64,000 nucleotides of DNA from an uncultured Gammaproteobacteria bacterium (GTDB lineage Bacteria; Patescibacteriota; Patescibacteriia; JAHIZJ01): positions 61,972 through 125,971 of the forward strand of contig CAZQLY010000004.1 of assembly GCA_964594455.1 (NCBI GenBank), read 5' to 3'. The number at the start of each line of letters is the position of its first letter. The stretch's first letter is position 1. Made by a program: the position numbers and the translations under genes. This document shows, one piece after another, positions 2,942-56,008 of this stretch. The notes below the pieces were generated by a model that ran no database searches, was not told the DNA's origin, and saw only the letters and a list, made by a program, of their open reading frames with translations.

Positions 2942-3175
2942 TTATTCTACTTACAGAATAACGTTTTTTAAATATGTAGTAAAGTAATTATAAGCACGTA
3001 AACCTTGTCAACTCGTGGGGGGTCCAGCCCGCTTCGCCGAAGCTTAGCGAGGCAAGGAGGGAAACCTGAGCGCCATAATATATGGTAATTAGTTGCTTTG
3101 TTAATGAGAGAAAATTTTACCCCCGGAGCTTTTGGTCCTTTTGGCTACAAAAGGACATAAAAATATGTAAAAAAA

Positions 3176-9829: not shown

Positions 9830-10062
9830 CCCTAAGTCCAGAGTTTTCTACTGGACTTTTTTATTGATTATTAAAATTAAATACTATAACAGTAAGATGA
9901 TTATGTTTTATTGTTTTTGTTTAGGATTTTCTTAGCTTCTAATGTGATTGGTTCTGTTTTTTTCTTGTCTTTTCTTTTGTTTACATGCTTAGTAATTAAA
10001 TCCGCCAACTCTCCATCACTCATAGGGGTGTGGTTACCCTCTATAACAATGTCCAGTTTATC

Positions 10063-17099: not shown

Positions 17100-18290
17100 T
17101 CAGGCTACTCTGTTATTCCCTTCAGAAAAGCCATCGCTCTCCCATTGGAGACGGATAACCTCGGAACCGAAGAGAATCTCAGAAGCGATCTGCCGCAGCA
17201 CCTGGTAGACCTCGTCTTGATCGTCGCTTGCACAATCGGTTGAACAGTAACCGGCCGCTGTCACCATGATTTGCTTGGGGTCCTGATCGTTCCAGATCTT
17301 CAGGTGGTGCAGTAAGCGATCTAGCTCAGTCGAATCTTCCAGGCCGCTTTGCTCCAGGATCTCGCTGAGGATCAGCCATTCACCGACCAGCTCAACCAGC
17401 TTATGGCAATGCAGCTGCCAGAAAGCCTGTTTGGCTCTCTGAGTCGTAGTAGCAGCAATCCAGAGCAGTGCCAGATAAACTGGGTCCTGCCCATGCCGCT
17501 TAATCCAATCAGGCATCTGGCGCGTCAACTCCTCAGCCTTGAGCACTCTGGCAATCGGCGGCTTGCTTCCCCAACCCTCCAGAATCCCCACCAGCCTCTC
17601 ATGCTGCTTGGGATCGCTTGGAATATCAAAGGCGTAAGCTACGTCCGCAAGCTCCTTCCAGCCACCCACCATTTCAGCAATATTGCTTAGCGGGTTGCTG
17701 TGCTCGGGCCAAGGAATCGTTTGTTGATCCTCGACCTCCTGATCAGTCGCTGAGAACCGGCTGCTTGGATCGAGATCCCTTACGAGTCGGGCACTCCTGA
17801 AATGAGCTACCGAAGAAGGTGGAATGGTCTGGCCACCGGAGGTGCTGCCTGTTCCCGGCTTCCTTACCAGAGATTGGCGCTCGTGACTGCTTACTCCACC
17901 GTCCGGTCCATAGAACCGCTGGTAGTAGTGAACTGCCCGGTTAACCAATAGCTGGAAAAAAGCTGGTTCAATCGGTCTAGGAACGAAGCCGTTGGCCCCG
18001 CATTTCGAAGCAGCTTGCCGGTAGCTTTCGAACTCGTTCGGATCATTGACTTCGCCCACCAGATAGATCATGACGATTCTCAGGTTGGGCATTCTTCTGA
18101 TTTCCGAGACCAGCCTTAAACAGTCCGGGTCGCTGTTCTCGATGAAAATCGCCGTCGGGATAACACCTTCGGTCACTTCGAAGACCTCGATCGAGCAAGT
18201 GGTCGAGTAGATCACTTCGTGCCCGATAAGAAGACTACGGTAAACTTCATGCCTGTTCACATCCGAGTCAAAGACCAACATCAGTGACAT
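17100..18290 (-). CDS. hypothetical protein with an N-terminal receiver (CheY-like)-type domain
   Basis: RBS gaggagg. The N-terminus MSLMLVFDSD...IFIENSDPD...RIVMIYLVGE is REC-like. The C-terminal ~270 aa are unknown. GC-rich. Confidence 0.5.
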   Translation of the reverse strand: MSLMLVFDSDVNRHEVYRSLLIGHEVIYSTTCSIEVFEVTEGVIPTAIFIENSDPDCLRLVSEIRRMPNLRIVMIYLVGEVNDPNEFESYRQAASKCGANGFVPRPIEPAFFQLLVNRAVHYYQRFYGPDGGVSSHERQSLVRKPGTGSTSGGQTIPPSSVAHFRSARLVRDLDPSSRFSATDQEVEDQQTIPWPEHSNPLSNIAEMVGGWKELADVAYAFDIPSDPKQHERLVGILEGWGSKPPIARVLKAEELTRQMPDWIKRHGQDPVYLALLWIAATTTQRAKQAFWQLHCHKLVELVGEWLILSEILEQSGLEDSTELDRLLHHLKIWNDQDPKQIMVTAAGYCSTDCASDDQDEVYQVLRQIASEILFGSEVIRLQWESDGFSEGNNRVA

Positions 18291-18707
18291 AGCATACCTC
18301 CTCTGCTGACTCAAATAAAAAGAGCCTCAAAGGAGGCGTCTGATATGGGCCATTCCTTGACCCAGAAGCTGTGGCGAAATTACCCGCAAGTTAATGCCGG
18401 TTACGCTACTGGCTCCCGATAGTCCGTTCTCCCGAGCTTATTCCAAGCTATTTGAGAGAAAAGCGTCCAAATTACAGACTATCGATCAGCGCCTCATTAA
18501 CACATCCTGGCGTTTCCAGAATGGTTCAGCGGGATTGTAGCACTAGACCAGTGGTTTGTCAAGGGGTTATTGTATTATTTCAATTGACTTAAAAATAACC
18601 TTTTGATTTCTTATCTTTGTAACCATTCCCTCCGACTACTGAACGACGGTAGAACCGCGGTATTGAGCGGAAAGTCCAATTTCTGCTTCCGTGAAGTAGC
18701 CCTGTAG

Positions 18708-19787
18708 TCAGATACCCGATTCGTCTTTCCCCGTTGCGTCACGTACCTGTTGTGCCAGCTTTTTCGTATTCCCGTGCCGTAACAGACCTAAATATGACTG
18801 AACGGTAGCTTCTGCCACCTGCTTGGCCTTGATGTTTTTGAACATTCTCCGCCTGGCCACGGTACGCAGTATGCGATGGTCGGGAAAATGCACCCAGCCC
18901 AGAAAATCCACTCCCGAAGCCACGGTCTCAATGGATACTTTGTCAGGGTGCAAATCCAGGTGCAGTCTGTCAGACAAAAAGTTCCTGATAAAAGACAAAA
19001 TACTTTCCAACCGCGCTTTATCTGACGAGAAATACACAAAATCGTCAGCATAGCGGATATAGTGCCGGGCTTTCAGTCCGTGCTTCACGTATTGGTCAAA
19101 CTCGTTCATGTAGACATTGACCAGAAGCTGGGAGGTAAGGTTGCCAAGTGGTAAGCCCTTTCCGTGTTCAATAGAAGAAAAACTGCTGATAATCTGGGCA
19201 AGCAGCCATTGAATGTCCGGGTCGGGAATGTAGCGGTTCACGATTTCAGAGAGAACAGAATGGTCTATCGAGGCAAAGAACTTCCTGATGTCGCATTTTA
19301 ATACCCAGCAGGTGCGGGTATGGTTGCGCGATACCTGGCAGGCGTATTTCCGAAACTGGTTAAGAGCTTTATGCGTTCCCTTGTTCACGCGGCAGGAATA
19401 TGAGTCGGCAATAATGGTGCGGTCAAAGAAAGGATAGAGTGCCCGGTACACAGCGTGGTGCAGCAGCCTGTCGCGGACGCTGGTCTTATGGATATTTCTG
19501 GGCTTGGGGTCGGAGATATTAAAAGCGTGGTAGGGCGAGTGCTTATAGGTTTTTCCTACTAAGTCTCGGTGCAGGGCAAGAATGTTAGCCATGAGATGTA
19601 ATTCAAAGAACTGCACGTCGGTGCGTGCCCGCTTGCCGCGCAAAAACTCCTGCCAGGCGTCGAGCAGATTCTCCACGGAAATGATATACTGAAAAGTGTT
19701 AAGAAACTGAATACGTCCCATGATGTCATATTCTACCCCCCCCCCCGCGATTTTGCCAGTGGCGCAAAAAGTAAAAAGCGCGTACAA
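18708..19787 (-). CDS. diversity-generating retroelement reverse transcriptase
   Basis: RT motifs are present, including LPLGNLTSQLLVNVYMNEF (the DGR-type [IL]GxxxSQ) and RYADDFV. There is no endonuclease or maturase domain. The true start may be the ATG at 19719. Confidence 0.85.
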   Translation of the reverse strand: MYALFTFCATGKIAGGGVEYDIMGRIQFLNTFQYIISVENLLDAWQEFLRGKRARTDVQFFELHLMANILALHRDLVGKTYKHSPYHAFNISDPKPRNIHKTSVRDRLLHHAVYRALYPFFDRTIIADSYSCRVNKGTHKALNQFRKYACQVSRNHTRTCWVLKCDIRKFFASIDHSVLSEIVNRYIPDPDIQWLLAQIISSFSSIEHGKGLPLGNLTSQLLVNVYMNEFDQYVKHGLKARHYIRYADDFVYFSSDKARLESILSFIRNFLSDRLHLDLHPDKVSIETVASGVDFLGWVHFPDHRILRTVARRRMFKNIKAKQVAEATVQSYLGLLRHGNTKKLAQQVRDATGKDESGI

Positions 19788-20119: not shown

Positions 20120-20242
20120 TTGCGCGAACCGCCGCAGGGTTGTTGTCATTCCAGTCGTTGTCGAGCCAGTTGTAGTTCCAGTTCCACCTGTCACCGTCCC
20201 AGTTGAGGTAGCGGACGTTGAGATTGCCGTCAGAGTTGCGGT
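20120..20242 (-). repeat. DGR template repeat (TR)
   Basis: 123-bp repeat of 20607..20729. On the minus strand it carries A at 11-12 positions where the VR copy differs. The shared GC-rich 3' segment ttgcgcgaaccgccgcagggttg looks IMH-like. Confidence 0.8.
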
Positions 20243-20598: not shown

Positions 20599-21162
20599 CT
20601 ACTTACTTGCGCGAACCGCCGCAGGGTTGCCGTCACCCCAGCCGTTGCCGAGCCAGTTGTAGTGCCAGTACCACCTGTCACCGCCCCAGTAGAGGTAGCG
20701 GACGCTGAGATTGCCGTAAGAGTTGCGGTAGATGGTGCCCCAGAAGAACACAGCCCTGCCCTTCCAGCTTTCGGGGATGAGCTGATGGTTGGCCAGCAGG
20801 TAGTCGAGGACGCAGGCGTTCAGGACGGGCTGACCTTCCAGCTTCTTGCGAAGCTCGTTGCCGACGATAGAGCCGTCCTTCTGCCCTTTATCGAGGTAGA
20901 GAGCGACGGCGTCGCTGCTCCACTCGAACTTGCCACCCTTCTTGTGCTCGAAGACTTCCCAGCCGTCGGGGATGAAGGGGTTGGCGTCACAGTCGATTAT
21001 TCGTCTCGTGACCGCGACCTCCAACTGGCCGCGAATGAGGCCCCGAATCAGGTCAAGGTGAGGCGAAGTGCGGAGCTTTGTCACATCGTCGGGAGTGTAA
21101 CCACTGGCCTCCAGCGCGTCGCCGAGCTGGTTCATCTGGCCGACCGAGTACAGCATTGACAT
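20599..21162 (-). CDS. DGR variable target protein with C-terminal VR (C-type-lectin/FGE-like variable region)
   Basis: RBS aaggag. C-terminus ...NLSVRYLYWGGDRWYWHYNWLGNGWGDGNPAAVRASK is encoded by the VR. Confidence 0.75.
   Translation of the reverse strand: MSMLYSVGQMNQLGDALEASGYTPDDVTKLRTSPHLDLIRGLIRGQLEVAVTRRIIDCDANPFIPDGWEVFEHKKGGKFEWSSDAVALYLDKGQKDGSIVGNELRKKLEGQPVLNACVLDYLLANHQLIPESWKGRAVFFWGTIYRNSYGNLSVRYLYWGGDRWYWHYNWLGNGWGDGNPAAVRASK
20607..20729 (-). repeat. DGR variable repeat (VR)
   Basis: See the TR feature. Mismatches against TR fall almost exclusively at TR adenines. Confidence 0.8.
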
Positions 21163-21565
21163 CGTCAACTCCTTTCGTTTGGACACGTTCTTGATTAGAA
21201 CCCGTCCTGCCTTTTGCTTATGGCTACACCGTGCAGCCATAGCTAGAAACCGCCCCTTGTCTGGAGAAGCTTGTAGCTATGGCCACAAACGCAAGTAAAA
21301 ATATCCTTGTAAAGTACAGACAGGGCAGAGTATCATATTTACTCGTTTACGTCAAGCCCCATTGTAAAAACTACAATTGACATCCAAACCCAGTTCTGAT
21401 ATCCTCATCTGAAGATCTTTACAACCATTCCCTCTGGTGAAAAGGCTAGAAAAGTTCCAGCTTTCTCGCTGGAGGGAATCTAAGGATGGTGGTCAAAAAA
21501 ACACCCGGATTGTAATAGTCGCACAATCCACCCTTTTTCCTTCTGGGCCGTATCCACTAAAGAAA

Positions 21566-21721: not shown

Positions 21722-22252
21722 GAGTAACAGCGACAGACAACACCTTGCGCCCCAATTGACTACCTATAGTCAGGGGCGCTTTTTTTTATTTGCCTAAATC
21801 CAATCCATCTACTCTATATGTAAGCGAGCGTTAACGCTCGCTTACGAATAGGGCTATCTTTAGCCATTGCAAATAACCCGCCGCAGGATTTATACTGCAC
21901 CAAATGCAATAAAATACAAATCGGGGGCGGGTTTTTGATTTTAAAACAACGGCCTTAGTTTCCTAAGGCCGTTGAATATTTATGATCCGCAAGTGCAGGG
22001 ATCATTGCCACAAGTTGGACATGGTTCCAACATTTTGTAGTCTCCCATCTTTACGGTTTAGCTTTGTTTTTGAATTATATCATATATTATATCTAGGCAA
22101 AAAATTAATAAATTTAGCTAAAGTAAGATAAATTTCTAAAGAATAGCTAAACTCAAACGTTAAAATACTGTTATTTTATCCCCATTTTATTGCCTTTTTT
22201 TAAATTTCAGCTATAATAAGTGCAGAATGTTAATAACTTATTAAGGAGACGT

Positions 22253-37550: not shown

Positions 37551-38339
37551 TTAAACCGGTCTTAATGTCCCAGCCCATACTTGCCAAGCAAGTAATGACT
37601 TGGCCACAAGACTTAGAATTATGTAGACAGTTTCGCCATAAAGATAATCGCGCCACTTGCCTACTTTCTTGTATTGCAGAATCATGTTAATGGCAAAGAC
37701 ATTAAAGAATATGAAAATTGACAGGAATATCCAATAGACAAAGTCCGGAGCTCTATTTTCACCACTGCCGGCGTTGAACAAATAAAATGCGATTGCTACC
37801 CACGGTATAGCTCCGGCAATACAGCCAAAAATGTATGAAGTCCAATCAGTTTTGGTGGTTGTTTGATTATGCAGTTCCATCACCCAGCCGAATAAAATCA
37901 TCATGGCGTTCAAGAAAAACATTAGCATCAAACTAATTCCATCGTACATACCAGTCAGCATGGCAATAACCACAATCATAATTGAAGAGCTGAATGAATA
38001 TTCAATCCAGCGGGCATAATTAGCGCCTTTGCCCAAATTCCTGACATACCACTGATAAATTCCAGGCAGTGAGATCATAAGATGGGCCAAAGCGGATAGG
38101 AATAAAAACAAAGCCACAATCGGTCCGATCTTCAGGTCAAAAAGCGTTTCCATGACCGGTGTTAGTTTGTTCTGACTAGCATCAAAATCCACAAACGAGC
38201 TAGTGACCGGCAGGGCAAAATCGCTGCTTAAAACCAGCATCAAAACAGCCTGCACCAAGTGCAGGGCGCCCATAAATAAATTAAATACTCTAAGTTTTCT
38301 AAATTTGTTTTCGCTGCTGGGTTGAATTTGTTCCTCCAT
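37551..38339 (-). CDS. heliorhodopsin
   Basis: Strong similarity along the whole length to heliorhodopsin 48C12. Examples are RWIEYSFSSSIMIV, MMILFGWVME, FGCIAGAIPW and the retinal Lys in YIILSLVAKSLLAWQ. Conserved His/Glu counterion positions are present. Confidence 0.9.
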   Translation of the reverse strand: MEEQIQPSSENKFRKLRVFNLFMGALHLVQAVLMLVLSSDFALPVTSSFVDFDASQNKLTPVMETLFDLKIGPIVALFLFLSALAHLMISLPGIYQWYVRNLGKGANYARWIEYSFSSSIMIVVIAMLTGMYDGISLMLMFFLNAMMILFGWVMELHNQTTTKTDWTSYIFGCIAGAIPWVAIAFYLFNAGSGENRAPDFVYWIFLSIFIFFNVFAINMILQYKKVGKWRDYLYGETVYIILSLVAKSLLAWQVWAGTLRPV

Positions 38340-45805: not shown

Positions 45806-45945
45806 TACTGATTCTACTCATTAATAATGAAAGTGTGGAAAATGCGGCTTGACATTGTAAACACTATATGATATAGTCTACTCGGATGACTTCCGTCTGA
45901 ACTGTGGCGTTTATCGCCGCGTTCCCGCAAGGGATAGGACGGGAG
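45806..45945 (+). ncRNA. candidate small RNA with its own promoter and intrinsic terminator
   Basis: TTGACA, then 17 nt, then TATAGT. The downstream transcript can fold into a three-way junction: P1 cuuccguc/gacgggag, P2 ggcg-uuuau-cgcc, P3 uccc-gcaa-ggga. A U-tract follows. Convergent with the DUF3800 gene. Confidence 0.3.
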
Positions 45946-45947
45946 TT

Positions 45948-46580
45948 TTATTTTGGCCAAACTTGAATATTCATTTCCCTATGTGCAATCATCCTATGAT
46001 ACTTTTCATGATTCCTTTTCTTTTTTAGACAATATCTATTAATCATACCCGCAATATAATCAGCAAGTTGTAGTAAATTATTACTATTTGATCTTTGCAT
46101 TTTCACTTTTCCAATACATTTTTTACCTTCATTGTTTATTTTTCTTCTTAAATAAGTGGCTAGCTGATTTCTGAATTCTTGATTACCGCTCTTGTCAATA
46201 ACAACCGTAGCTTTCTCCAGATCATCGTGAGCATTTTGGAAAACTAGATTACATGCATATTTATAAAAAGAATGCTTGTCTTTAAAGCCGTCTCCCCATA
46301 ATTTTTTTGGATCTTTATTAATAACAATTCCGTAATAAAAAAATTCATAAGGAGACACCGCTTGTAAAAAAGCACTCCTTACTCTGTTAGAGTTCCTTTT
46401 GAAATGGAATTCTTCATTATTATCCCAACCTAATTCATGTTTTAGCAGAGCAATTCTCCGATCGCAGGCTTGGGCTTCCTCATTATCAGAAAACAACACT
46501 AAAGCAACAGTAAAATACCTGCTTGATCCTTCTTTTATTTTTAAACCGGAATCACCGGATTCATCAATAAATACCAACAT
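45948..46580 (-). CDS. DUF3800 family protein
   Basis: The N-terminus MLVFIDESGDSG is the DUF3800 signature. Confidence 0.7.
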   Translation of the reverse strand: MLVFIDESGDSGLKIKEGSSRYFTVALVLFSDNEEAQACDRRIALLKHELGWDNNEEFHFKRNSNRVRSAFLQAVSPYEFFYYGIVINKDPKKLWGDGFKDKHSFYKYACNLVFQNAHDDLEKATVVIDKSGNQEFRNQLATYLRRKINNEGKKCIGKVKMQRSNSNNLLQLADYIAGMINRYCLKKKRNHEKYHRMIAHREMNIQVWPK

Positions 46581-47603: not shown

Positions 47604-47745
47604 AAAATCTTATTATTCAACCTCACCTTTTGTCTTCCCTGCCTTCTTTTTCATATTCAAATCATACCTCCAAACCACAACAAAATCAAGTAATAATTAA
47701 CAATTAATAAATAACGAAAAAACCGCCTGGGTTGGCTGGGCTTAG

Positions 47746-47765
47746 AACCTTTTAACTAAAAGGTT
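47746..47765. repeat. REP-like 20-bp palindrome AACCTTTTAACTAAAAGGTT (copy 1 of 4)
   Basis: The other copies are at 48481-48500, 48990-49009 and 49426-49445, all in intergenic spacers. A conserved left flank gggttgNctggg is shared between copies 1 and 4. Confidence 0.7.
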
Positions 47766-47883
47766 TAGTCATTTGACGAATGATTGGTGGAGGGGTTGAC
47801 AAATCGATATCTTTACCTTATTATTACTGGTTGTTCTTTCTTGGAATTCAGGCCTGTCACATATAAACACAGGAGGGGTGTAA

Positions 47884-48395
47884 TGACAGCCAAACCGCAG
47901 TTAAAGGAATTCGAAATCCGTAACTGGGCTGGCAGTGGTTCTTGCCAATATGTGTATGCCAAGTTCGAGGATGGCTGGATAGTCTTCTCCGGATCTGGAC
48001 GAGGAACTACGTCCATCAGCAATGCCGAGAGAGTGATCCTGGCAATTGCTAAGTTGGAGCACATCAAACCGCTTGAGTGTCGCTGGTTTGACCTTCAGAC
48101 CCATCGTATGTATGGCCATCGCCGTCACTGGGGAGAACCGAGTGAATTCATGTTTAATGAACTTCAGATAGTAGAAGCTCCACCCGCTCAGGTGCCAGCT
48201 GGCGCCACTGTCATAACCAATGGAACAGGCATCAGTGTGAGCCACTGGGTCTTCGTCGAATGCCCTTCAGAAGTCATTGAACTGTTCTCGGATGTGATTG
48301 GTCCCAATCCTTACCAAAAAAAGAACCGTGATGACCACCGTCCTGGCAGTGAAGCACACCTTGACCAACTTGCCAACAATGCACCGTGCAACTAA
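47884..48395 (+). CDS. hypothetical protein
   Basis: RBS aggagggg. GC-rich. Flanked by REP-like palindromes. Confidence 0.5.
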
Positions 48396-48480
48396 GGTTG
48401 GTTGGGTTCAGCGATCGAAACTACCGTGATTCGGTCGCTTTTTTTTGACCAAAAACAACTCAAACGTGAAGAGTGTATAT

Positions 48481-48500
48481 AACCTTTTAACTAAAAGGTC
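48481..48500. repeat. REP-like palindrome copy 2
   Basis: aaccttttaactaaaaggtc. Confidence 0.65.
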
Positions 48501-48561
48501 CAATGTAGAAGTAAAAAAAGAACCCCATTCCTGGAGTTCATGACGGGTAGGACATACTGGG

Positions 48562-48897
48562 TCAGGGCTGGGGCTCTTCGTCATAGTCGCTGGTACCCGC
48601 ATCACGCGAGTAGGGCTTGCCAGTGACCGGGCTCCTGGGCACATGCCTTTGGGTGTCACTGGCATCGATAGCTTCATGATAAAGAGGGTCCTGGTTTTCG
48701 TTGACAAACTGCTTGACCATACTCTGGCATTGCCGACAGACCTTATTGTGCGGGGTCATGGGATTGCCGCAACGCGGGCAGGACTTGACGCACTGCTGGC
48801 AGATGGGCACATTGTGGAGCACCTGAATGCTCACACTCTTACCCTCTGTTGTCTGGCAGAAAGCGCATTCCCTCTTTTTACGCACCTGTGTCTTCAT
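48562..48897 (-). CDS. Cys-rich zinc-ribbon protein
   Basis: CAFCQ...C..C plus CPRCG...CRQCQ. GC-rich. Confidence 0.45.
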   Translation of the reverse strand: MKTQVRKKRECAFCQTTEGKSVSIQVLHNVPICQQCVKSCPRCGNPMTPHNKVCRQCQSMVKQFVNENQDPLYHEAIDASDTQRHVPRSPVTGKPYSRDAGTSDYDEEPQP

Positions 48898-48989
48898 ATG
48901 ACCTCCTTATGGCAAAGAACGGTTAACATGGTAAATATATGATATATAAAATCAGTATTTTGTCAATACTATAACAGTTTAGTATATCT

Positions 48990-49009
48990 AACCTTTTAAC
49001 CAAAAGGTT
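48990..49009. repeat. REP-like palindrome copy 3
   Basis: aaccttttaaccaaaaggtt. Confidence 0.65.
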
Positions 49010-49016
49010 TGATCAT

Positions 49017-49301
49017 TTATTTTTCTATCTTTCTGGTATACCTACAATTGGGATAGTTACTACAGCCCAGGAATGGCCCATACTTTCCATGCTTTTTTAC
49101 CAGCTTGCCATCACAGTCCGGGCATTTCGGGAATTTCCTTGTGCTTAAAATAAATCTGGTTAGCTTCTTTTCTAATTTGATCCTGAAAAATAAAACGATC
49201 AGACTCACTATTCCAATAACTGCAATCGCTGGAATAACATACTTGGCTATCTGCCAAACTAGTGTTTCACTACCTTCAACTATGTTCGGATCTGCTGCCA
49301 T
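49017..49301 (-). CDS. membrane-anchored protein with a topoisomerase-type C4 zinc finger
   Basis: TM helix. CPDCDGKLVKKHGKYGPFLGCSNYPNCRY is a zf-C4-Topoisom-like motif. Confidence 0.55.
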   Translation of the reverse strand: MAADPNIVEGSETLVWQIAKYVIPAIAVIGIVSLIVLFFRIKLEKKLTRFILSTRKFPKCPDCDGKLVKKHGKYGPFLGCSNYPNCRYTRKIEK

Positions 49302-49370
49302 GTTCTAACTTAATTATTTATTAATGCTTTAATTATACTTACCTTCTCATTACTTTTCAACACAAAAAAA

Positions 49371-49445
49371 CTACAGCCCACTGGGTAGCAGGCTGTAGAA
49401 ATTATTTGGGTTGTCTGGGAGTTACAACCTTTTAACTAAAAGGTT
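49371..49445. repeat. composite repeat: hairpin ctacagcc-N12-ggctgtag + spacer + REP-like palindrome copy 4
   Basis: The left hairpin plus aaattatttgggt is duplicated at 53160-53200. Confidence 0.65.
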
Positions 49446-49999
49446 TAATCTTTTGCTATATCGCCTTTCTCTTGATACTTTTTTAGTTTTTCATACTCCC
49501 CTAATATTTTCTTTTTTCCCTCTTCATTACTGAACCAGCTATTTTTGTCAAAACCCAATAATGAATATGTTACCGGATGAAAGGTTATGTTATTGGGAAA
49601 ATATTTTTTCAATGTCAAGAAAGCTCTTTTGGCGTGATAGTGCTTTGTTATATAGATGATGTGTTTGATGTTTTGGAATCCGATTTTCTCTTCGATAACG
49701 TTTTTTGAAAAGACTACATTTTCCAAAGAATTTGTTGATGTCTTTTCTAGAATTATATCGTCGTGATCAACACCTCTTGCTTTTAATTCTTTCGAAAGAT
49801 CATCTGCTTCGTTCCTGCCCGTTATCCTATTTATCCCACCGGTTATTAAAACCTTGCGAACCAGGCCTCTATTATACAAGTTAACAAACACATCAACGGG
49901 CTCTTTATGACGGGTACCAAAAATAATGGCTAGATCCGATTTACACGGATCAGAATCCATAAATAAATATTCGGTAATGGCTTGTATATTTGAATCCAT
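49445..49999 (-). CDS. DUF218/YdcF-family protein
   Basis: DLAIIFG...VLITGG...TSTNSLENV follows the DUF218 pattern. Confidence 0.7.
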   Translation of the reverse strand: MDSNIQAITEYLFMDSDPCKSDLAIIFGTRHKEPVDVFVNLYNRGLVRKVLITGGINRITGRNEADDLSKELKARGVDHDDIILEKTSTNSLENVVFSKNVIEEKIGFQNIKHIIYITKHYHAKRAFLTLKKYFPNNITFHPVTYSLLGFDKNSWFSNEEGKKKILGEYEKLKKYQEKGDIAKD

Positions 50000-50052
50000 A
50001 TATGTATTTTAGCATAAAAAAGAGTGCCCAGAAACAACATGAGCACTCAACT

Positions 50053-50265
50053 CTAATCCTCCTTCCATCGGTATTGTTCAGGAAACGTCCTGAATACCTT
50101 GGTTTTTAGGATGGAATGCACCCTATTAGCCATATCTTTCACAGAAAACGAACTGACGCCAAGCCTAGCTTTAGCGAGACCGCTTTCGGTTACGACTAAC
50201 TGCTCCAGACTCGACAAGCGTTCTCTGACTTCTGTTACCAGGTCGATTACGTCTTGCAACGACAT
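50053..50265 (-). CDS. small hypothetical protein downstream of the radical SAM gene
   Basis: 19-nt overlap with the rSAM gene. Confidence 0.3.
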   Translation of the reverse strand: MSLQDVIDLVTEVRERLSSLEQLVVTESGLAKARLGVSSFSVKDMANRVHSILKTKVFRTFPEQYRWKED

Positions 50266-51704
50266 CCATGTTCAGTCCAGCTGATCAGGGCACGAAGGGT
50301 CCTAGCCTCAACTTGAAACAACAGACGGCTCAATCTCTCAAAAGACTTCCGTTGATTGAACGCCGGGGCTTTTTTGATCCCCCAGAATTCATCTTGGTAT
50401 GCCTTCTTTAGGCTATCAATCCATTCTACAGATATTGTCTTGAGTGCCATGTAGGTCGCAGCAAGAACTGGATCCATTAAATACTCATGATATCCTTCAA
50501 GCGGATTGCGCCTAATTAAGCGTCCTTCGGATGAAAGCAGGGCCTGGATTGGTGTACCGTCGAATACACGAAGCGCCTTGGATAGGGTGGGCGTAAAGCC
50601 GAACCTCTCCAAGAAGTCCAAATCACATACAACCGAACCAATCGTACTGTAGGGATTGAAGATCATGAATCCAGGAACGATGTCAATCACTGCGTTGCGC
50701 AACACTTCAATCATGTGCAGTATGGTTGCCAGTGATTCGCCCTTACGGAAAACCCGCAAGATTTCAGGATCAACGCTCTCAATACCAACCAGTAAACGCT
50801 CAAATCCGGCTCTTCTCATGAGCAATGCCACTTCCTCATCTACGTCATTGGATCGACAGAAGCCCATGAGGTGGAGATCGTCGAGTTGGCGGCGGATGAC
50901 TTCACGACACAGATCGACAACGTGTCTTCGTCCAGCGCGTCCCGGCCCAAAAAGATTGGCGTCGTTGAACTTAAACACAGTCACGTTGTAATCACGTCTC
51001 AGTTGTTCAATCTCGTCCACTACTTCAGCCGGATTCCTGGGCCTCCAGTTTGGACCAAGCGACATGCGCTCAAAACTGCAATTGCTGCAGAAGGTACAAA
51101 CTCCGTAACAGCCGCGGCTAGCCAAGACTGTTGCATAATTTGTCATCTGCAGGCAATGGGGCAGTAGATCGCGAGACGCTCGAGGTAATGTGTCTAGATC
51201 AGGCTTTGATGAGGGGGCGTTGGTTATTACAGAAGCACCCATATAGGACAGGCCTGGCAAATCATGCCAATCGTGTCCCCCAATAACCCTCTCGACCAAG
51301 ATTCTGAACGATACGTCACCCTCACCCAGAACGATAGAATCAATGCCTGAGATGTGAGTTAGCAACTGTTCGGTGCTCAATGTCGCCGTGATACCACCAC
51401 AGCATATATGCGCCGAGCATTGATTCTCGCGTAACCCTTCAACCAGTTGCTTAACTGACGGCAGTGCGCGTTGCATAACCGTAAAGCCGATCACCTTCGC
51501 CTGACGCTCGTATATCTGAGAGATTGTCTCTTGGATCGTCAGAGCGAATACGTCAGCATCAAGAATCTCAACATCAATACCGACTTCACGCAAGCTTGCC
51601 GTCAGGTACATCAGACCCATTGGTTCTTTCGGATTGTAATCCGGTATGCGTCCCGACTGATACATCGGTGGGACTACCAGCAAAACATCTCTGGTTGTCT
51701 TCAT
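50247..51704 (-). CDS. B12-binding domain-containing radical SAM protein
   Basis: N-terminal cobalamin-binding-like domain. CYGVCTFCS is a CxxxCxxC cluster. GC-rich. Confidence 0.8.
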   Translation of the reverse strand: MKTTRDVLLVVPPMYQSGRIPDYNPKEPMGLMYLTASLREVGIDVEILDADVFALTIQETISQIYERQAKVIGFTVMQRALPSVKQLVEGLRENQCSAHICCGGITATLSTEQLLTHISGIDSIVLGEGDVSFRILVERVIGGHDWHDLPGLSYMGASVITNAPSSKPDLDTLPRASRDLLPHCLQMTNYATVLASRGCYGVCTFCSNCSFERMSLGPNWRPRNPAEVVDEIEQLRRDYNVTVFKFNDANLFGPGRAGRRHVVDLCREVIRRQLDDLHLMGFCRSNDVDEEVALLMRRAGFERLLVGIESVDPEILRVFRKGESLATILHMIEVLRNAVIDIVPGFMIFNPYSTIGSVVCDLDFLERFGFTPTLSKALRVFDGTPIQALLSSEGRLIRRNPLEGYHEYLMDPVLAATYMALKTISVEWIDSLKKAYQDEFWGIKKAPAFNQRKSFERLSRLLFQVEARTLRALISWTEHGCRCKT

Positions 51705-51716
51705 CGCAACCTCCCG

Positions 51717-52991
51717 TTATGTATCTGTAGGGTTGATCCTCAGAATGTCAGCACCAAGGCTGGTCAGTCTTTCTTCTAGAAATTCATAGCCGCGATCAAT
51801 GTGATATACACGATCAACCACGGTTATCCCTTCTGCTGCTAATCCGGCCAGCACCAACCCGGCACCAGCCTGCAGATCACTCGCCATTACCGGAGCACCG
51901 TTCAAGCGAGGAACTCCGGTAACAACAGCTTCATCAAAACGGGTCTTCACATCAGCTCCCATACGGTTCAGCTCATCAACGTGCATTAGGCGTTTCTCAA
52001 AAACAGTCTCCTTCACAATCCCCACACCGTCGGCAACAGTCAGCAGAGCCATCATTTGAGGCTGGAAGTCTGTAGGAAATCCAGGAAACGGCCAGGTGGT
52101 AATGTTAACAGGCCTCAAACGACCGTTACATATAACCCTCAGGGCATCATCACCAACCTCCGTGACCTCGATTCCCATTTGTTGCATTTTGCTTATGACG
52201 ATACTGAGATTCTGTTGGACCGCATTTTTCACAACCACATCGCCGCCAGTAATTGCTGCGGCAGCAAGAAAGAAGGCTGTCTCAATTCGCGAGGGGATGG
52301 GAGTGAACTCAATAGCAGACAAACGAGAGACTCCTTCAATGGTAATTGTTGGAGTACCCGCACCATAGACCCTGGCTCCCATAGAGTTGAGAAAGTCAGC
52401 CAGACAAACTACTTCGGGTTCACATGCTGCGTTCACTAGGGTAGTGGTTCCTTTGGCTAGCACTGCGGCCATCATGATGTTTTCCGTACCCGTATGAGTC
52501 GGAAAATCGAAATGATAAGTCGCCCCGCGCAAACCAGATGTCGTCGCTACGACAAAACCACTGTCCTGTGTAACTGAAGCGCCAAGATGCTGTAACGCCT
52601 CAATATGCATATCAACCCTACGTTCACCAATAGCACAGCCTCCTGGTAGAGACACACGGGCCTCATGGAAGCGGGCCACCAATGGCCCAATTACCAAAAA
52701 AGAGGCTCTCATCTTACTTACCCATTCATAAGGTGCTTCAAGGCTGCTTATTCGAGTGCAATCAATACAGAGAGTCCTCGAAGCCCCGTCATACCCAATC
52801 TTAGCTCCTAGTCCTTCAAGGACCTTGGAAATAACATGCACATCACTAAGATTGGGCACATTTCTAATGACTGTCTGCCCCCTGTCTGCTAGTAATGATG
52901 CGGCGATTAACGGCAGTATGCCATTCTTTACGCCTAGGACTTCGATTTCGCCATGCAACTTCTTCCCGCCTCTTATTTTGAACTGATCCAT
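51717..52991 (-). CDS. murA: UDP-N-acetylglucosamine 1-carboxyvinyltransferase
   Basis: Full-length EPSP-synthase-fold MurA beginning MDQFKIRGGKKLHGEIEV...LPLIAASLLA. GC-rich. Confidence 0.9.
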   Translation of the reverse strand: MDQFKIRGGKKLHGEIEVLGVKNGILPLIAASLLADRGQTVIRNVPNLSDVHVISKVLEGLGAKIGYDGASRTLCIDCTRISSLEAPYEWVSKMRASFLVIGPLVARFHEARVSLPGGCAIGERRVDMHIEALQHLGASVTQDSGFVVATTSGLRGATYHFDFPTHTGTENIMMAAVLAKGTTTLVNAACEPEVVCLADFLNSMGARVYGAGTPTITIEGVSRLSAIEFTPIPSRIETAFFLAAAAITGGDVVVKNAVQQNLSIVISKMQQMGIEVTEVGDDALRVICNGRLRPVNITTWPFPGFPTDFQPQMMALLTVADGVGIVKETVFEKRLMHVDELNRMGADVKTRFDEAVVTGVPRLNGAPVMASDLQAGAGLVLAGLAAEGITVVDRVYHIDRGYEFLEERLTSLGADILRINPTDT

Positions 52992-53159
52992 TTCGAACCT
53001 CTCTTTCTATACTGTGATAGGCTAATTGTCAATGAACGACTGTAAACAATATCATTAATTGTGTTATATAGTCAACTAAATCTGTCTCAGTCTATAAATA
53101 AAAAAAGTATGTCTCCCTCTGTGTTCATAATCCAATCCTACCAACATTAACAATATTAA

Positions 53160-53200
53160 CTACAGCCCACCAATCAGCAGGCTGTAGAAACTATTTGGGT
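53160..53200. repeat. second copy of the hairpin ctacagcc...ggctgtag + aaactatttgggt
   Basis: Matches 49371-49410. Confidence 0.6.
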
Positions 53201-53214
53201 CGTGTTGTTTTGCT

Positions 53215-53613
53215 TTACTCAGTCGTAGTGCCGTCGAAATCCTCTTCGTTGGCTTCGGCTTCGGCCTTGGTGGCACGGACTATGCCATCCTTGTGATGGG
53301 CTGGTGAGTAGATGGTGTACATCTTTAGCATTTCTGAGTCTGAGGTATTGATGACATTGTGTTCGGATCCGGCTGGGACCACGATGGCTGATCCGTCCCC
53401 TACTTCATACTCATTGCCATCGATGACTACTTTTCCTTTACCGACTTCAAATCGGAAAAACTGATCATTGTCCGGATGGGTTTCCAGACCGATATCTTCG
53501 TTGGGCTGGAGTGCCATCAAGACTAATTGGCTGTGCTTTGAGGTGTAGAGCACTTGGCGGAAGTTTTCGTTGGCCAGAGTGGCTTTTTCGATGTTGTCAG
53601 AAAAACCTTTCAT
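53215..53613 (-). CDS. cupin domain protein
   Basis: Spacing between ETHPDNDQFF and AGSEHNVIN matches the cupin motifs. Confidence 0.75.
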   Translation of the reverse strand: MKGFSDNIEKATLANENFRQVLYTSKHSQLVLMALQPNEDIGLETHPDNDQFFRFEVGKGKVVIDGNEYEVGDGSAIVVPAGSEHNVINTSDSEMLKMYTIYSPAHHKDGIVRATKAEAEANEEDFDGTTTE

Positions 53614-53650
53614 ATTTTTTAATTTAGTGATTAGCTACTGTCTTATTATA

Positions 53651-54181
53651 CTAACAGCATGATTGATTTCTTTCAAGAAATAGATACGGATAGAGCTCAC
53701 CCTCTTTTATCAAACCATGTTTTATGGGGTTGTATTTGAGATACTCCATGTAGGCATTGAAATCGTCTTGATCCCGGATTATGTGGTCGTGATAGGAACC
53801 ATGCCAGGCGAAACGCTTCGCGGTTGTGTTTCTAGAATCTACGTACTCCCGTAAGCGGGCAAACGTTTGCCCGCTTGCGTGGGTGGGAAACTCCACCCCA
53901 CCACGTAAGCGAGGATGGCCATCCTCGCCTACGGGAAAAACAGTGTTTCTCATAAGAATATTGATATTCCGTGAAGAGTGCCTTTTGGCAAAATGCATGT
54001 AATCTGAGATGGAATATTTTCCATGGGGTTTTAACAATATATGAACATGGTCGGGGATAATTACATATCCGAATAATCTGCATTTTTTGAAATCACAGCC
54101 CATTTTTATTACCTCGGCCATATATTTTGCCAACTCTTTATCCCGAAAGTAAGGATACCCGTCTTTTGTGCGCGTAGTCAC
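53651..54181 (-). mobile_element. rayT: REP-associated tyrosine transposase (RayT; IS200/Y1-HUH family)
   Basis: HUH motif IPDHVHILL. Catalytic Tyr region WHGSYHDHIIRD...YLKYNPIKHGLI is typical of COG1943. Confidence 0.8.
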
Positions 54182-54368
54182 AAATATATGGCATTGTCTA
54201 GATATATCCTTTTTTGGCTGTTTTTGTGATACATAAAAACAGGGCTTTGGATCTCCCTGTGTCTCAGCTTCATCCTACCAAAAACCGTGGTTGTTTTCAA
54301 TGATAAAAAGAGGCGGAGTGGAGCTTATGCTCACTCCGCCGTATTTGCGAACTGGCCGCTAGTCGTGG

Positions 54369-55703: not shown

Positions 55704-55778
55704 TGGAGCCACCCGTCGGATTCGAACCGACGACCTACTGTTTACAAAACAGTTGCTCTACCACTGAGCTAGGGTGGC
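55704..55778 (-). tRNA. tRNA-Thr (anticodon UGU), CCA encoded
   Basis: GCCACCC-TA-GCTC-AGTGGTA-GAGC-A-ACTGT-TTTGTAA-ACAGT-AGGTC-GTCGG-TTCGAAT-CCGAC-GGGTGGC-T-CCA. Confidence 0.9.
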
Positions 55779-55798
55779 GTGGTTATTAATTTAATTGA

Positions 55799-55894
55799 AC
55801 AGTTGCTCTACCCGCCTCGACTCGCTGATGCTTGTCTCAGCGAGGCGGGCCACTGAGCTAGGGTGGCGTGGTTATTAATTTAATTGAACAGTTG
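55799..55894 (-). pseudogene. tandem duplicate of the tRNA-Thr 5' half interrupted by a 37-nt hairpin insertion
   Basis: gaacagttgctctac[cgcctcg...cgaggcg]ccactgagctagggtggcg together with the repeated flank tggttattaatttaattgaacagttgc. Confidence 0.5.
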
Positions 55895-56008
55895 CGTAAT
55901 TTATCCCATACCTGAAGTGAAACGCAGTTGTACGGGCCGCTGCTTGCCCCGCGAAGCTTTAGCGAAGCGGGGAGCTATCCCAGCAGGTTTTTTAATTATT
56001 TAACCTAC

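Follow-up and report, generated by a model that had tools for sequence, protein, structure and literature searches.

Repetitive extragenic palindromes (REPs) and bacterial interspersed mosaic elements (BIMEs), together with the REP-associated tyrosine transposase (RAYT) genes of E. coli and Pseudomonas, are among the described systems closest to the locus reported here. To our knowledge, work on such short palindromic repeats and on RAYT genes has been confined almost wholly to Proteobacteria and a few other phyla. Short sites also bound genes in integron arrays, whose attC sites are imperfect structures of 55 to 140 nt with R''/L''/L'/R' boxes and extrahelical bases, and in Xer-dependent pdif modules and arrays of integrative mobile elements exploiting Xer (IMEX), where dif-like sites of 28 bp (11-6-11) alternate in orientation and the recombinase is encoded elsewhere. 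As a rule, abundant REPINs flank RAYT genes in extragenic space (Bertels et al. 2017, PMC5581495), and one end of a REP bears a GTAG or CGTC tag that stays unpaired (Di Nocera et al. 2013, PMC3733652). Here, we analyzed a stretch of 64 kb (the window; contig CAZQLY010000004.1, positions 61,972 to 125,971) from a bacterium deposited as an uncultured gammaproteobacterium and placed in Patescibacteriota by GTDB. It carries four copies of an AT-rich, 20-nt palindrome (the AT palindrome) and, 4.2 kb from the nearest copy, a RayT-type gene; a preliminary description had presented the two as a REP-like family with its transposase.

A search of the window for AACCTTTTAACYAAAAGGTT, tolerating up to three mismatches, confirmed the four described copies, starting at 47746, 48481, 48990, and 49426, and returned no other place in the 64 kb. 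The copies (P1 to P4) and the motifs beside two of them lie as follows, B to E being the small genes of the region.
47746-47765, plus strand: P1 (AACCTTTTAACTAAAAGGTT), between the promoter of the DpnI gene (minus strand) and the promoter of ORFan gene B
48481-48500, plus strand: P2, with one mismatch (...GGTC) and a 7-bp stem, between the terminators of convergent genes B and C
48990-49009, plus strand: P3, with loop AACC, 7 nt past the gene D stop and 24 nt from the gene C -35 element
49426-49445, plus strand: P4, overlapping the stop codon of the DUF218 gene (E) by one base, ahead of the canonical terminator of that gene
47729-47740, plus strand: left-flank motif GGGTTGGCTGGG, beside P1
49408-49419, plus strand: left-flank counterpart GGGTTGTCTGGG, beside P4
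All four copies thus share one orientation. Four copies compare with 0.03 matches expected by chance, none of 100 shuffles reached 8, and the 16-mers of the palindrome are the sole 16-mers occurring at least three times in the window. The core, AACCTTTTAACTAAAAGGTT, is a perfect 8-4-8 dyad of 20 nt (an 8-bp stem with two G-C pairs and a 4-nt loop), some copies being lengthened to TTAAACC...GGTTTAA, and the extended left flank GGGTTGNCTGGG is common to P1 and P4, as first described. The AT palindromes are a real, non-random, and homogeneous family. Their immediate flanks (CTTAG/TAGTC, TATAT/CAATG, TATCT/TGATC, and GTTAC/TAATC) hold neither a GTAG nor a CGTC tag at the palindrome ends, and no inverted doublets (REPINs) are formed by the four copies, which are spaced 436 to 735 bp apart and packed within 1.7 kb.

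The family extends beyond the window. A scan of one genome per species with the 19-mer returned 44 loci against about 17 expected by chance in 596 Gb; given this chance rate, most single 19-mer matches in unrelated genomes are uninformative and were not counted as family. Three sets are not explained by chance, namely, the Patescibacteria metagenome-assembled genome (MAG) STA_36 (GCA_028714495.1), Uhrbacteria contigs, and DPANN archaeal MAGs, and a metagenome scan added contigs of JAEAME01. STA_36 carries four exact dispersed copies and one variant in the 52 kb read of its ~0.8 Mb (three contigs); in the variant (CACC...GGTG), a double change preserves the outer pair. One exact copy lies within the coding sequence of queA (locus L038, 5801-5820, encoding NLLNLLVKRLT) without any insertion relative to solved QueA, an occurrence that chance cannot produce and that may reflect gene conversion or selection. 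In Uhrbacteria, a single copy sits ~16 nt upstream of the ligA start, with 20 of 20 bases kept while both flanks are ~20% different. Contig JAEAME010000054.1 (L066) contains three exact copies and one degenerate copy in a single orientation. Its paralogous lipoprotein modules differ in their C-terminal parts but open with a common 290-nt repeat, made up of promoter region, 5' leader, and lipoprotein signal peptide, and every exact copy marks the distal edge of one such repeat. The probability of a single orientation in both arrays, that of the window and that of L066, is 0.016 by chance (0.5^6). Across 14 aligned copies, conservation is limited to the palindrome and one or two flanking bases, and P2 as well as the copies in L065 and L066 follow a canonical terminator; this palindrome-only conservation and the placement of copies just past terminators favor a DNA-level spacer element over an RNA element. 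The 12-mer core TTTTAACYAAAA was found, in ~630 kb of fetched sequence, only within full palindromes. The AT palindrome family is therefore conserved across several Patescibacteria genomes with unrelated flanks.

Other observations were made at these loci. In L066 (2672-7066), one of the three paralogous lipoprotein C-terminal domains resembles an M23 peptidase, and the lipoprotein genes adjoin a tRNA-like sequence of 64 nt that is duplicated and is not called by ARAGORN. The DPANN MAGs hold many copies of ATAAACCTTTTAACGAAAAGGTTTCCAAAA, which differs from the bacterial palindrome core by one loop base and often shares tandem units of ~57 nt with a second hairpin, as a REP/BIME-like repeat family; its loci belong to Pacearchaeota (L015, L016, L025, L026, L031, and L042-L044) and Nanoarchaeota (L017, L020, L021, L029, L037, and L040). 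Several candidate identities of the AT palindrome were rejected: a DNA-uptake sequence, since the half-site AACCTTTT occurs outside the palindromes just six times on the plus strand and not at all on the minus strand; a dif site or replication terminus, since the cumulative GC skew declines monotonically over the window and the STA_36 copies are dispersed; and a clustered regularly interspaced short palindromic repeat (CRISPR) array, since the spacings of 436 to 735 bp contain genes.

Profile searches upheld the preliminary calls of the small genes, which are of mixed orientation and mosaic composition and are separated by the AT palindromes as had been noted.
47796-48447, plus strand: module B, self-contained, with ORFan gene 47883-48395
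48520-48966, minus strand: module C, with zinc-ribbon gene 48562-48897, promoter 48966-48939, and terminator 48539-48520
49017-49360, minus strand: module D, with gene 49017-49301 and promoter TTGAAA-17-TATAAT at 49360-49332
49445-49999, minus strand: DUF218 gene (E), by profile match
Gene B, which is oriented opposite to C, D, and E, matches no protein family and has no homologue among 5.8 billion proteins; a TTGACA-17-TATTAT promoter precedes it at 47796-47824 (plus strand), and a hairpin with a T8 terminator follows at 48410-48447. Gene C gives weak zinc-ribbon matches under the Pfam cut-off, and gene D matches Zn_ribbon_Top1, its hydrophobic N-terminal stretch, a putative membrane anchor, having been read from the translation and not predicted by a tool. 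Homologue searches for C and D returned only zinc-ribbon domain matches, in viral contigs, and viral contigs do not contain the AT palindrome 19-mer. The three best promoter-like sites in the region (11 of 12 matches, sigma-70-like) are those of B, C, and D, and genes B, C, and E have terminators of their own; for gene D, none was identified other than possibly P3. The AT palindromes lie outside these units, P1 being upstream of the B promoter and P2 between two convergent terminators. The GC content at third codon positions (GC3) is 0.51 for B, 0.68 for C, 0.40 for D, and 0.34 for E, and it ranges from 0.22 to 0.77 over 44.9-54.7 kb compared with ~0.40 for ribosomal and other core genes. The upstream neighbors are a DpnI-type methyl-directed restriction enzyme (mREase_II), a DUF3800 protein, and a Fic/Doc protein, all of which match defense-system models. 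No integrase, recombinase, or second transposase was found among the scanned window open reading frames (ORFs) of at least ~110 aa. As a separate observation, a DUF3800-IX RNA motif (56.3 bits; 45888-45951, plus strand) abuts the DUF3800 gene (45948-46580, minus strand) at the start of this defense-like island.

We then turn to the RayT-type gene, which lies between a cupin gene and a gene for an acidic protein.
53651-54234, minus strand: RayT-like Y1 (HUH) gene, frameshifted, from profiles and homologue comparison
54240-54259, minus strand: hairpin CAGGGAGATCCAAAGCCCTG followed by a T-run, directly upstream of the RayT ATG
The ORF at 53651-54181 (minus strand) was correctly assigned to the RayT type in the preliminary description: it matches Pfam Y1_Tnp, scores 87.7 bits with NCBIfam REP_Tyr_transpos (cut-off 80), and contains the motifs IPDHVH and YLKYNPIKHG; the PDB entry that it matches best, E. 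coli TnpA-REP (4ER8), aligns with it over the HUH and Tyr regions. The alternative of an IS200/IS605 tnpA is contradicted by the lack of a TnpB and of terminal inverted repeats and by the IS200 model, which reaches 34.8 against a cut-off of 55. This ORF covers only the 3' part of the gene, which carries a frameshift and truly starts at the ATG at 54234. The N-terminus MYHKNSQKRIYLDNAIY, which agrees with the homologues, runs from this ATG to a stop at 54180-54178, the cause being one T missing in the run 54182-54184, with the remainder in another frame; an independent Logan assembly (run SRR7048224) has the identical sequence at this site. The homologue of STA_36 is likewise frameshifted, at a different T-run, in three assemblies, whereas those of L081, L085, and L087 are intact. 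The active RayT implied by the proposed REP/RayT system is thus unsupported here and, through a lesion elsewhere in the sequence, in the related genome. The gene is single-copy in the window, and a search of its flanks for repeats and hairpins found no 16-mers repeated in the window and called no hairpins outside the ORF. Its locus is syntenic between STA_36 (L046) and L087, and, judging from this one genome pair, the Patescibacteria RayT-like clade appears to be vertically inherited. The gene resembles IS200/IS605 elements in its Y1 HUH enzyme and, as in IS200, in the pre-start hairpin with T-run, and differs from them in the absence of tnpB and of flanking left-end and right-end hairpins, in copy number, and in its syntenic position in two genomes. 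The pre-start hairpin and T-run were seen in four genomes (the window, L046 ~9862-9879, L081 ~869-889, and L087 ~9860-9880) with variable stems (CAGGG/CCCTG, CAGCAG/CTGCTG, and CAGG/CCTG) that recall the IS200 upstream terminator.

The proposed link between the AT palindromes and this gene did not hold. The RayT gene is unflanked by AT copies here and in STA_36, L081, and L085, and no AT palindrome was found near any of five RayT loci, including within 10 kb of the STA_36 homologue and in loci L081, L085, and L087. Conversely, none of the ~60 loci bearing the AT palindrome encodes a RayT-like protein. Since the palindrome has only four copies in the 64 kb, does not flank the gene as REPINs flank RAYT genes (PMC5581495), and has no tag of the kind found on REPs (PMC3733652), nor doublets, it is not the REP of this RayT. 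As far as sequence comparison can tell, the AT palindromes are not a substrate of the neighboring RayT-type gene.

A different palindrome, GC-rich and tagged, accompanies the RayT clade.
53851-53932, minus strand: GC-rich hairpins H1 to H3, together encoding VGEDGHPRLRGGVEFPTHASGQTFARLR
53932-53905, minus strand: H1 (GTAGGCGAGGATGGCCATCCTCGCTTAC), inside the RayT ORF
53904-53879, minus strand: H2, inside the RayT ORF
53878-53851, minus strand: H3 (GCAAGCGGGCAAACGTTTGCCCGCTTAC), inside the RayT ORF
21820-21845, strand not assigned: extragenic GC palindrome GTAAGCGAGCGTTAACGCTCGCTTAC, just downstream of a terminator
Outside the window: GC palindromes at L046 10181-10208; L081 1187-1214; L085 5308-5335 and 5688-5719; L038 3929-3956 and 5513-5576
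The three hairpins lie within the RayT ORF, in frame, in the linker ahead of WQxSFHDHIIR, and fold as a three-hairpin junction (-32.8 kcal/mol, z = -6.7). H1, GTAGGCGAGGATGGCCATCCTCGC(C/T)TAC, codes for VGEDGHPRL, and its core is identical across genes whose proteins share only ~50 to 60% identity. In the L085 gene (33% identical), the inner arms are altered on both sides (ATTCG/CGAAT), and a second GC copy with the same lineage-specific inner arms lies 60 nt upstream of the RayT start. A five-sequence alignment of GC palindromes has 95% of cells paired, with three pairs showing double changes, and a GTAG...CTAC-tagged GC palindrome occurs inside every RayT clade member examined. Most GC copies found are intragenic; in STA_36, they also lie in frame in queA, as an insert of ~17 residues relative to 1VKY, and in queH. 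Protein searches with the in-frame hairpin-insert peptide returned two spurious repeat proteins (representative search) and no candidate (word-based search). No Rfam family matches the AT palindrome, the GC-rich palindrome, or the three-hairpin structure of the RayT ORF, and a literature search on the palindrome sequences themselves found nothing relevant. As a control, the same hairpin finder revealed repeated hairpins on the flanks of classical RayT genes carried by plasmids of Chloroflexota and of Bernardetia (L088 and L090), and the method thus detects the canonical REP arrangement where it is present.

Taken with the comparisons above, these sequences indicate that a REP/RayT-like association probably exists in this lineage, with the GC-rich tagged palindrome and not with the AT 20-mer. 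The locus resembles the REP/BIME systems in its short extragenic palindromes and its lone RayT-type HUH/Tyr gene related to 4ER8, and the clade's GC-rich palindromes resemble REPs in their GTAG/CTAC tags and, in L085, in flanking the gene. The AT palindromes differ from REPs in flanking, tag, doublets, and, within the sequence read, abundance, and the accompanying RayT gene is frameshifted; moreover, the palindromes that do track the gene lie mainly within its ORF, in frame, an arrangement not found in the REP/RAYT literature searched. Rickettsia palindromic elements, like intragenic REPs (Di Nocera et al. 2013), also lie in frame in coding genes, but the GC-rich units are much shorter (26 to 32 nt), are linked with a RayT-like gene, and come from Patescibacteria.

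For the AT palindromes, we infer with a little less than even confidence that the copies are DNA-level, protein-recognized junction sites where gene modules were inserted or duplicated. The homogeneity and conservation of the family, the second array, the placement of the copies relative to the units, the mosaic composition of the genes, and the separate, GC-rich palindrome of the RayT clade speak for this reading. The copies occupy the spacers that separate self-contained single-gene units bordering a defense/accessory island; a sequence-specific protein encoded elsewhere would recognize the palindrome as duplex or as extruded hairpin, and modules would have been inserted or duplicated there, leaving one copy per junction, all in one orientation. 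Several points weigh against this proposal. As no recombinase-type gene is present among the scanned window ORFs (nor an integrase or second transposase), the recognizing protein is hypothetical. Just two arrays are known, and the STA_36 copies are solitary, the one inside queA coming without an insertion relative to solved QueA. The stable single-site copy of Uhrbacteria resembles a functional site that has become fixed, an operator for instance, more than it does a junction scar, and arms of 7 to 8 bp with a centre of 4 to 6 bp are short for a recombinase core site. Among described systems, pdif modules and IMEX arrays are alike in having short dyad sites bounding modules and a recombinase encoded elsewhere, but the AT site, with its shorter arms, is not dif-like and keeps a constant orientation.

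The main rival is that the AT palindrome is an operator bound by a conserved dimeric regulator or nucleoid protein, the array representing adjacent regulated promoters. The perfect 8-4-8 dyad would suit such a protein, P1, P3, and P4 sit 24 to 66 nt upstream of the -35 elements of the three strongest predicted promoters, the copy upstream of ligA in Uhrbacteria is conserved while its flanks drift, and the L066 copies head three paralogous promoter regions. We nevertheless regard an operator as rather unlikely: the estimated distances to transcription start sites are inconsistent (~-67, -75, and -110, and, in L066, 178 nt ahead of the ATG), neither P2 nor the L065 copy has a promoter that it could regulate, the downstream genes make no coherent regulon, and no regulator gene recurs beside the sites. 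The sites of one regulator, besides, normally vary, whereas the arms and centre here are near-invariant within and between genomes. Action at the RNA level, with the hairpins terminating or stabilizing the 3' ends of upstream genes as proposed for many REPs, would account for P3 (just past the stop of gene D, a gene otherwise without a terminator), for the overlap of P4 with the DUF218 stop, and for the many copies in other genomes that lie 0 to 120 nt past a stop codon, and the sequence does fold as an 8-bp hairpin. However, the AT-rich stem has little stability (-4.6 to -7.6 kcal/mol as DNA, z = -1.9 to -4.9), a T-run is absent after each copy, and the terminator scan of the region called none of them. 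P2 and the copies of L065 and L066 lie downstream of canonical terminators and P4 has one after it, the orientation relative to the upstream gene is inconstant, and the sequence identity across genes and genomes is left unexplained. An RNA role is consequently improbable, and the earlier suggestion that the palindromes double as intrinsic terminators was not sustained, the copies being without a T-run, uncalled by the scan, and in several cases behind a canonical terminator.

The model first proposed, in which the AT palindromes are REPs or IS200/IS605-type hairpin ends worked in trans by the RayT-like gene, finds some resonance in their being short, extragenic, and mostly just past stops, with one intragenic copy, as in REP families (Di Nocera et al. 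2013, PMC3733652). One orientation per array is what strand-specific Y1 enzymes would need, and both multi-copy genomes known, those of the window and of STA_36, have a RayT-like gene. Yet no RayT gene of the clade is flanked by the AT palindrome, in contrast to REPIN-flanked RAYTs (PMC5581495), the palindromes have neither the tag nor inverted doublets, there are only four copies in 64 kb, within 1.7 kb, and the RayT genes of the window and STA_36 are both frameshifted. The stems are also perfect, without the bulges typical of TnpA or RayT substrates, and it is the GC-rich tagged palindrome that covaries with the RayT gene. We therefore give this model little credence, and its further part, that the segments between palindromes are cassettes mobilized as single strands by the Y1 (HUH) enzyme 4.2 kb away, seems to us similarly doubtful. 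The attC alternative raised in the preliminary description, an integron-like array with the AT palindromes as miniature attC sites, shares with integrons the directly oriented, site-like repeats between small heterogeneous genes of foreign composition. It is highly improbable and largely refuted already: the scanned ORFs gave no IntI, Phage_integrase, or other tyrosine recombinase match, and there is no attC architecture, the sites being 20-nt perfect hairpins with flanks that do not fit RYYYAAC/GTTRRRY consistently; the cassettes here bring promoters and terminators of their own and point in both directions, whereas those of integrons are mostly promoterless and share one orientation. The rest of our confidence is assigned to none of these readings.

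The junction-site reading can be carried one step further, to an attachment site of an undescribed Patescibacteria module-capture system, although we consider this quite improbable. A recombinase or hairpin-specific enzyme encoded elsewhere would insert, duplicate, or swap self-contained genes, each with promoter and terminator, at a palindrome of 20 to 26 bp, which would yield same-orientation arrays at the edges of defense or surface-protein islands. Were module capture true, cross-domain exchange between these two groups of ultra-small symbionts, Patescibacteria and DPANN archaea, would be conceivable, as the near-identical core AACCTTTTAACGAAAAGGTT is multi-copy in DPANN archaeal MAGs.

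The second hairpin module of the preliminary description, CTACAGCC-N12-GGCTGTAG followed by AAAYTATTTGGGT, indeed occurs exactly twice (49371-49411 and 53160-53200; chance expectation 0).
49363-49411, minus strand: copy 1, a 12-pair stem (CTACAGCCTGCT/AGTGGGCTGTAG) followed by TTTTTTT; DUF218 intrinsic terminator (stem 49398-49371)
53145-53200, minus strand: copy 2, downstream of the cupin gene (53215-53613), a 12-pair terminator-like hairpin whose T-rich tail is weaker
The sole stem difference between the copies keeps pairing only on the minus strand (A-T to G-T), and the terminator scan called both copies on that strand. The two copies, related in sequence, are intrinsic terminators of the ordinary kind.

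Additional features were noted in the window. A diversity-generating retroelement (DGR) is marked by a reverse transcriptase gene (18708-19787, minus strand) beside a pair of 123-nt repeats (20120-20242 and 20607-20729); 11 of their 12 differences coincide with a T in the first copy, which reads as A on the opposite strand, and the variable copy lies in the ORF 20599-21240. A cyclic di-GMP-II (c-di-GMP-II) riboswitch (18386-18505, minus strand; 60.2 bits against a gathering score of 53.5) is located between the DGR reverse transcriptase and a 404-aa ORF of no known family (17100-18314), upstream of the latter. A perfect 46-nt direct repeat (55761-55806 and 55850-55895), comprising the tRNA-Thr 5' end and its upstream region, brackets a GC-rich hairpin, CCCGCCTCG...CGAGGCGGG (55808-55850), and looks like a small insertion with duplication. 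A GC-rich element of ~32 nt, CCCGCTTCGC..AAGCTT.GCG.GGCAAG, is present as an inverted pair (3028-3059 and 55940-55971), with both copies intergenic and without an Rfam match. Finally, this genome, with RayT relatives in Patescibacteria, has a heliorhodopsin gene at 37551-38339 (minus strand; Pfam E = 1e-103).

Extragenic palindromes, RayT genes, and intragenic REPs are already known kinds of elements. What is new is their Patescibacteria setting, the junction-array arrangement of the AT palindromes, and a RayT-like clade with an in-frame tagged palindrome that is also present in housekeeping genes. The locus illustrates that an obvious pairing, such as a palindrome family with a nearby RayT gene, can mislead. 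The tagged palindrome inside the RayT reading frame, with copies within queA and queH, bears on how REP-like elements may persist where intergenic space is scarce, and a homogeneous palindrome marking module borders in variable islands would make module turnover in Patescibacteria testable through presence/absence breakpoints.

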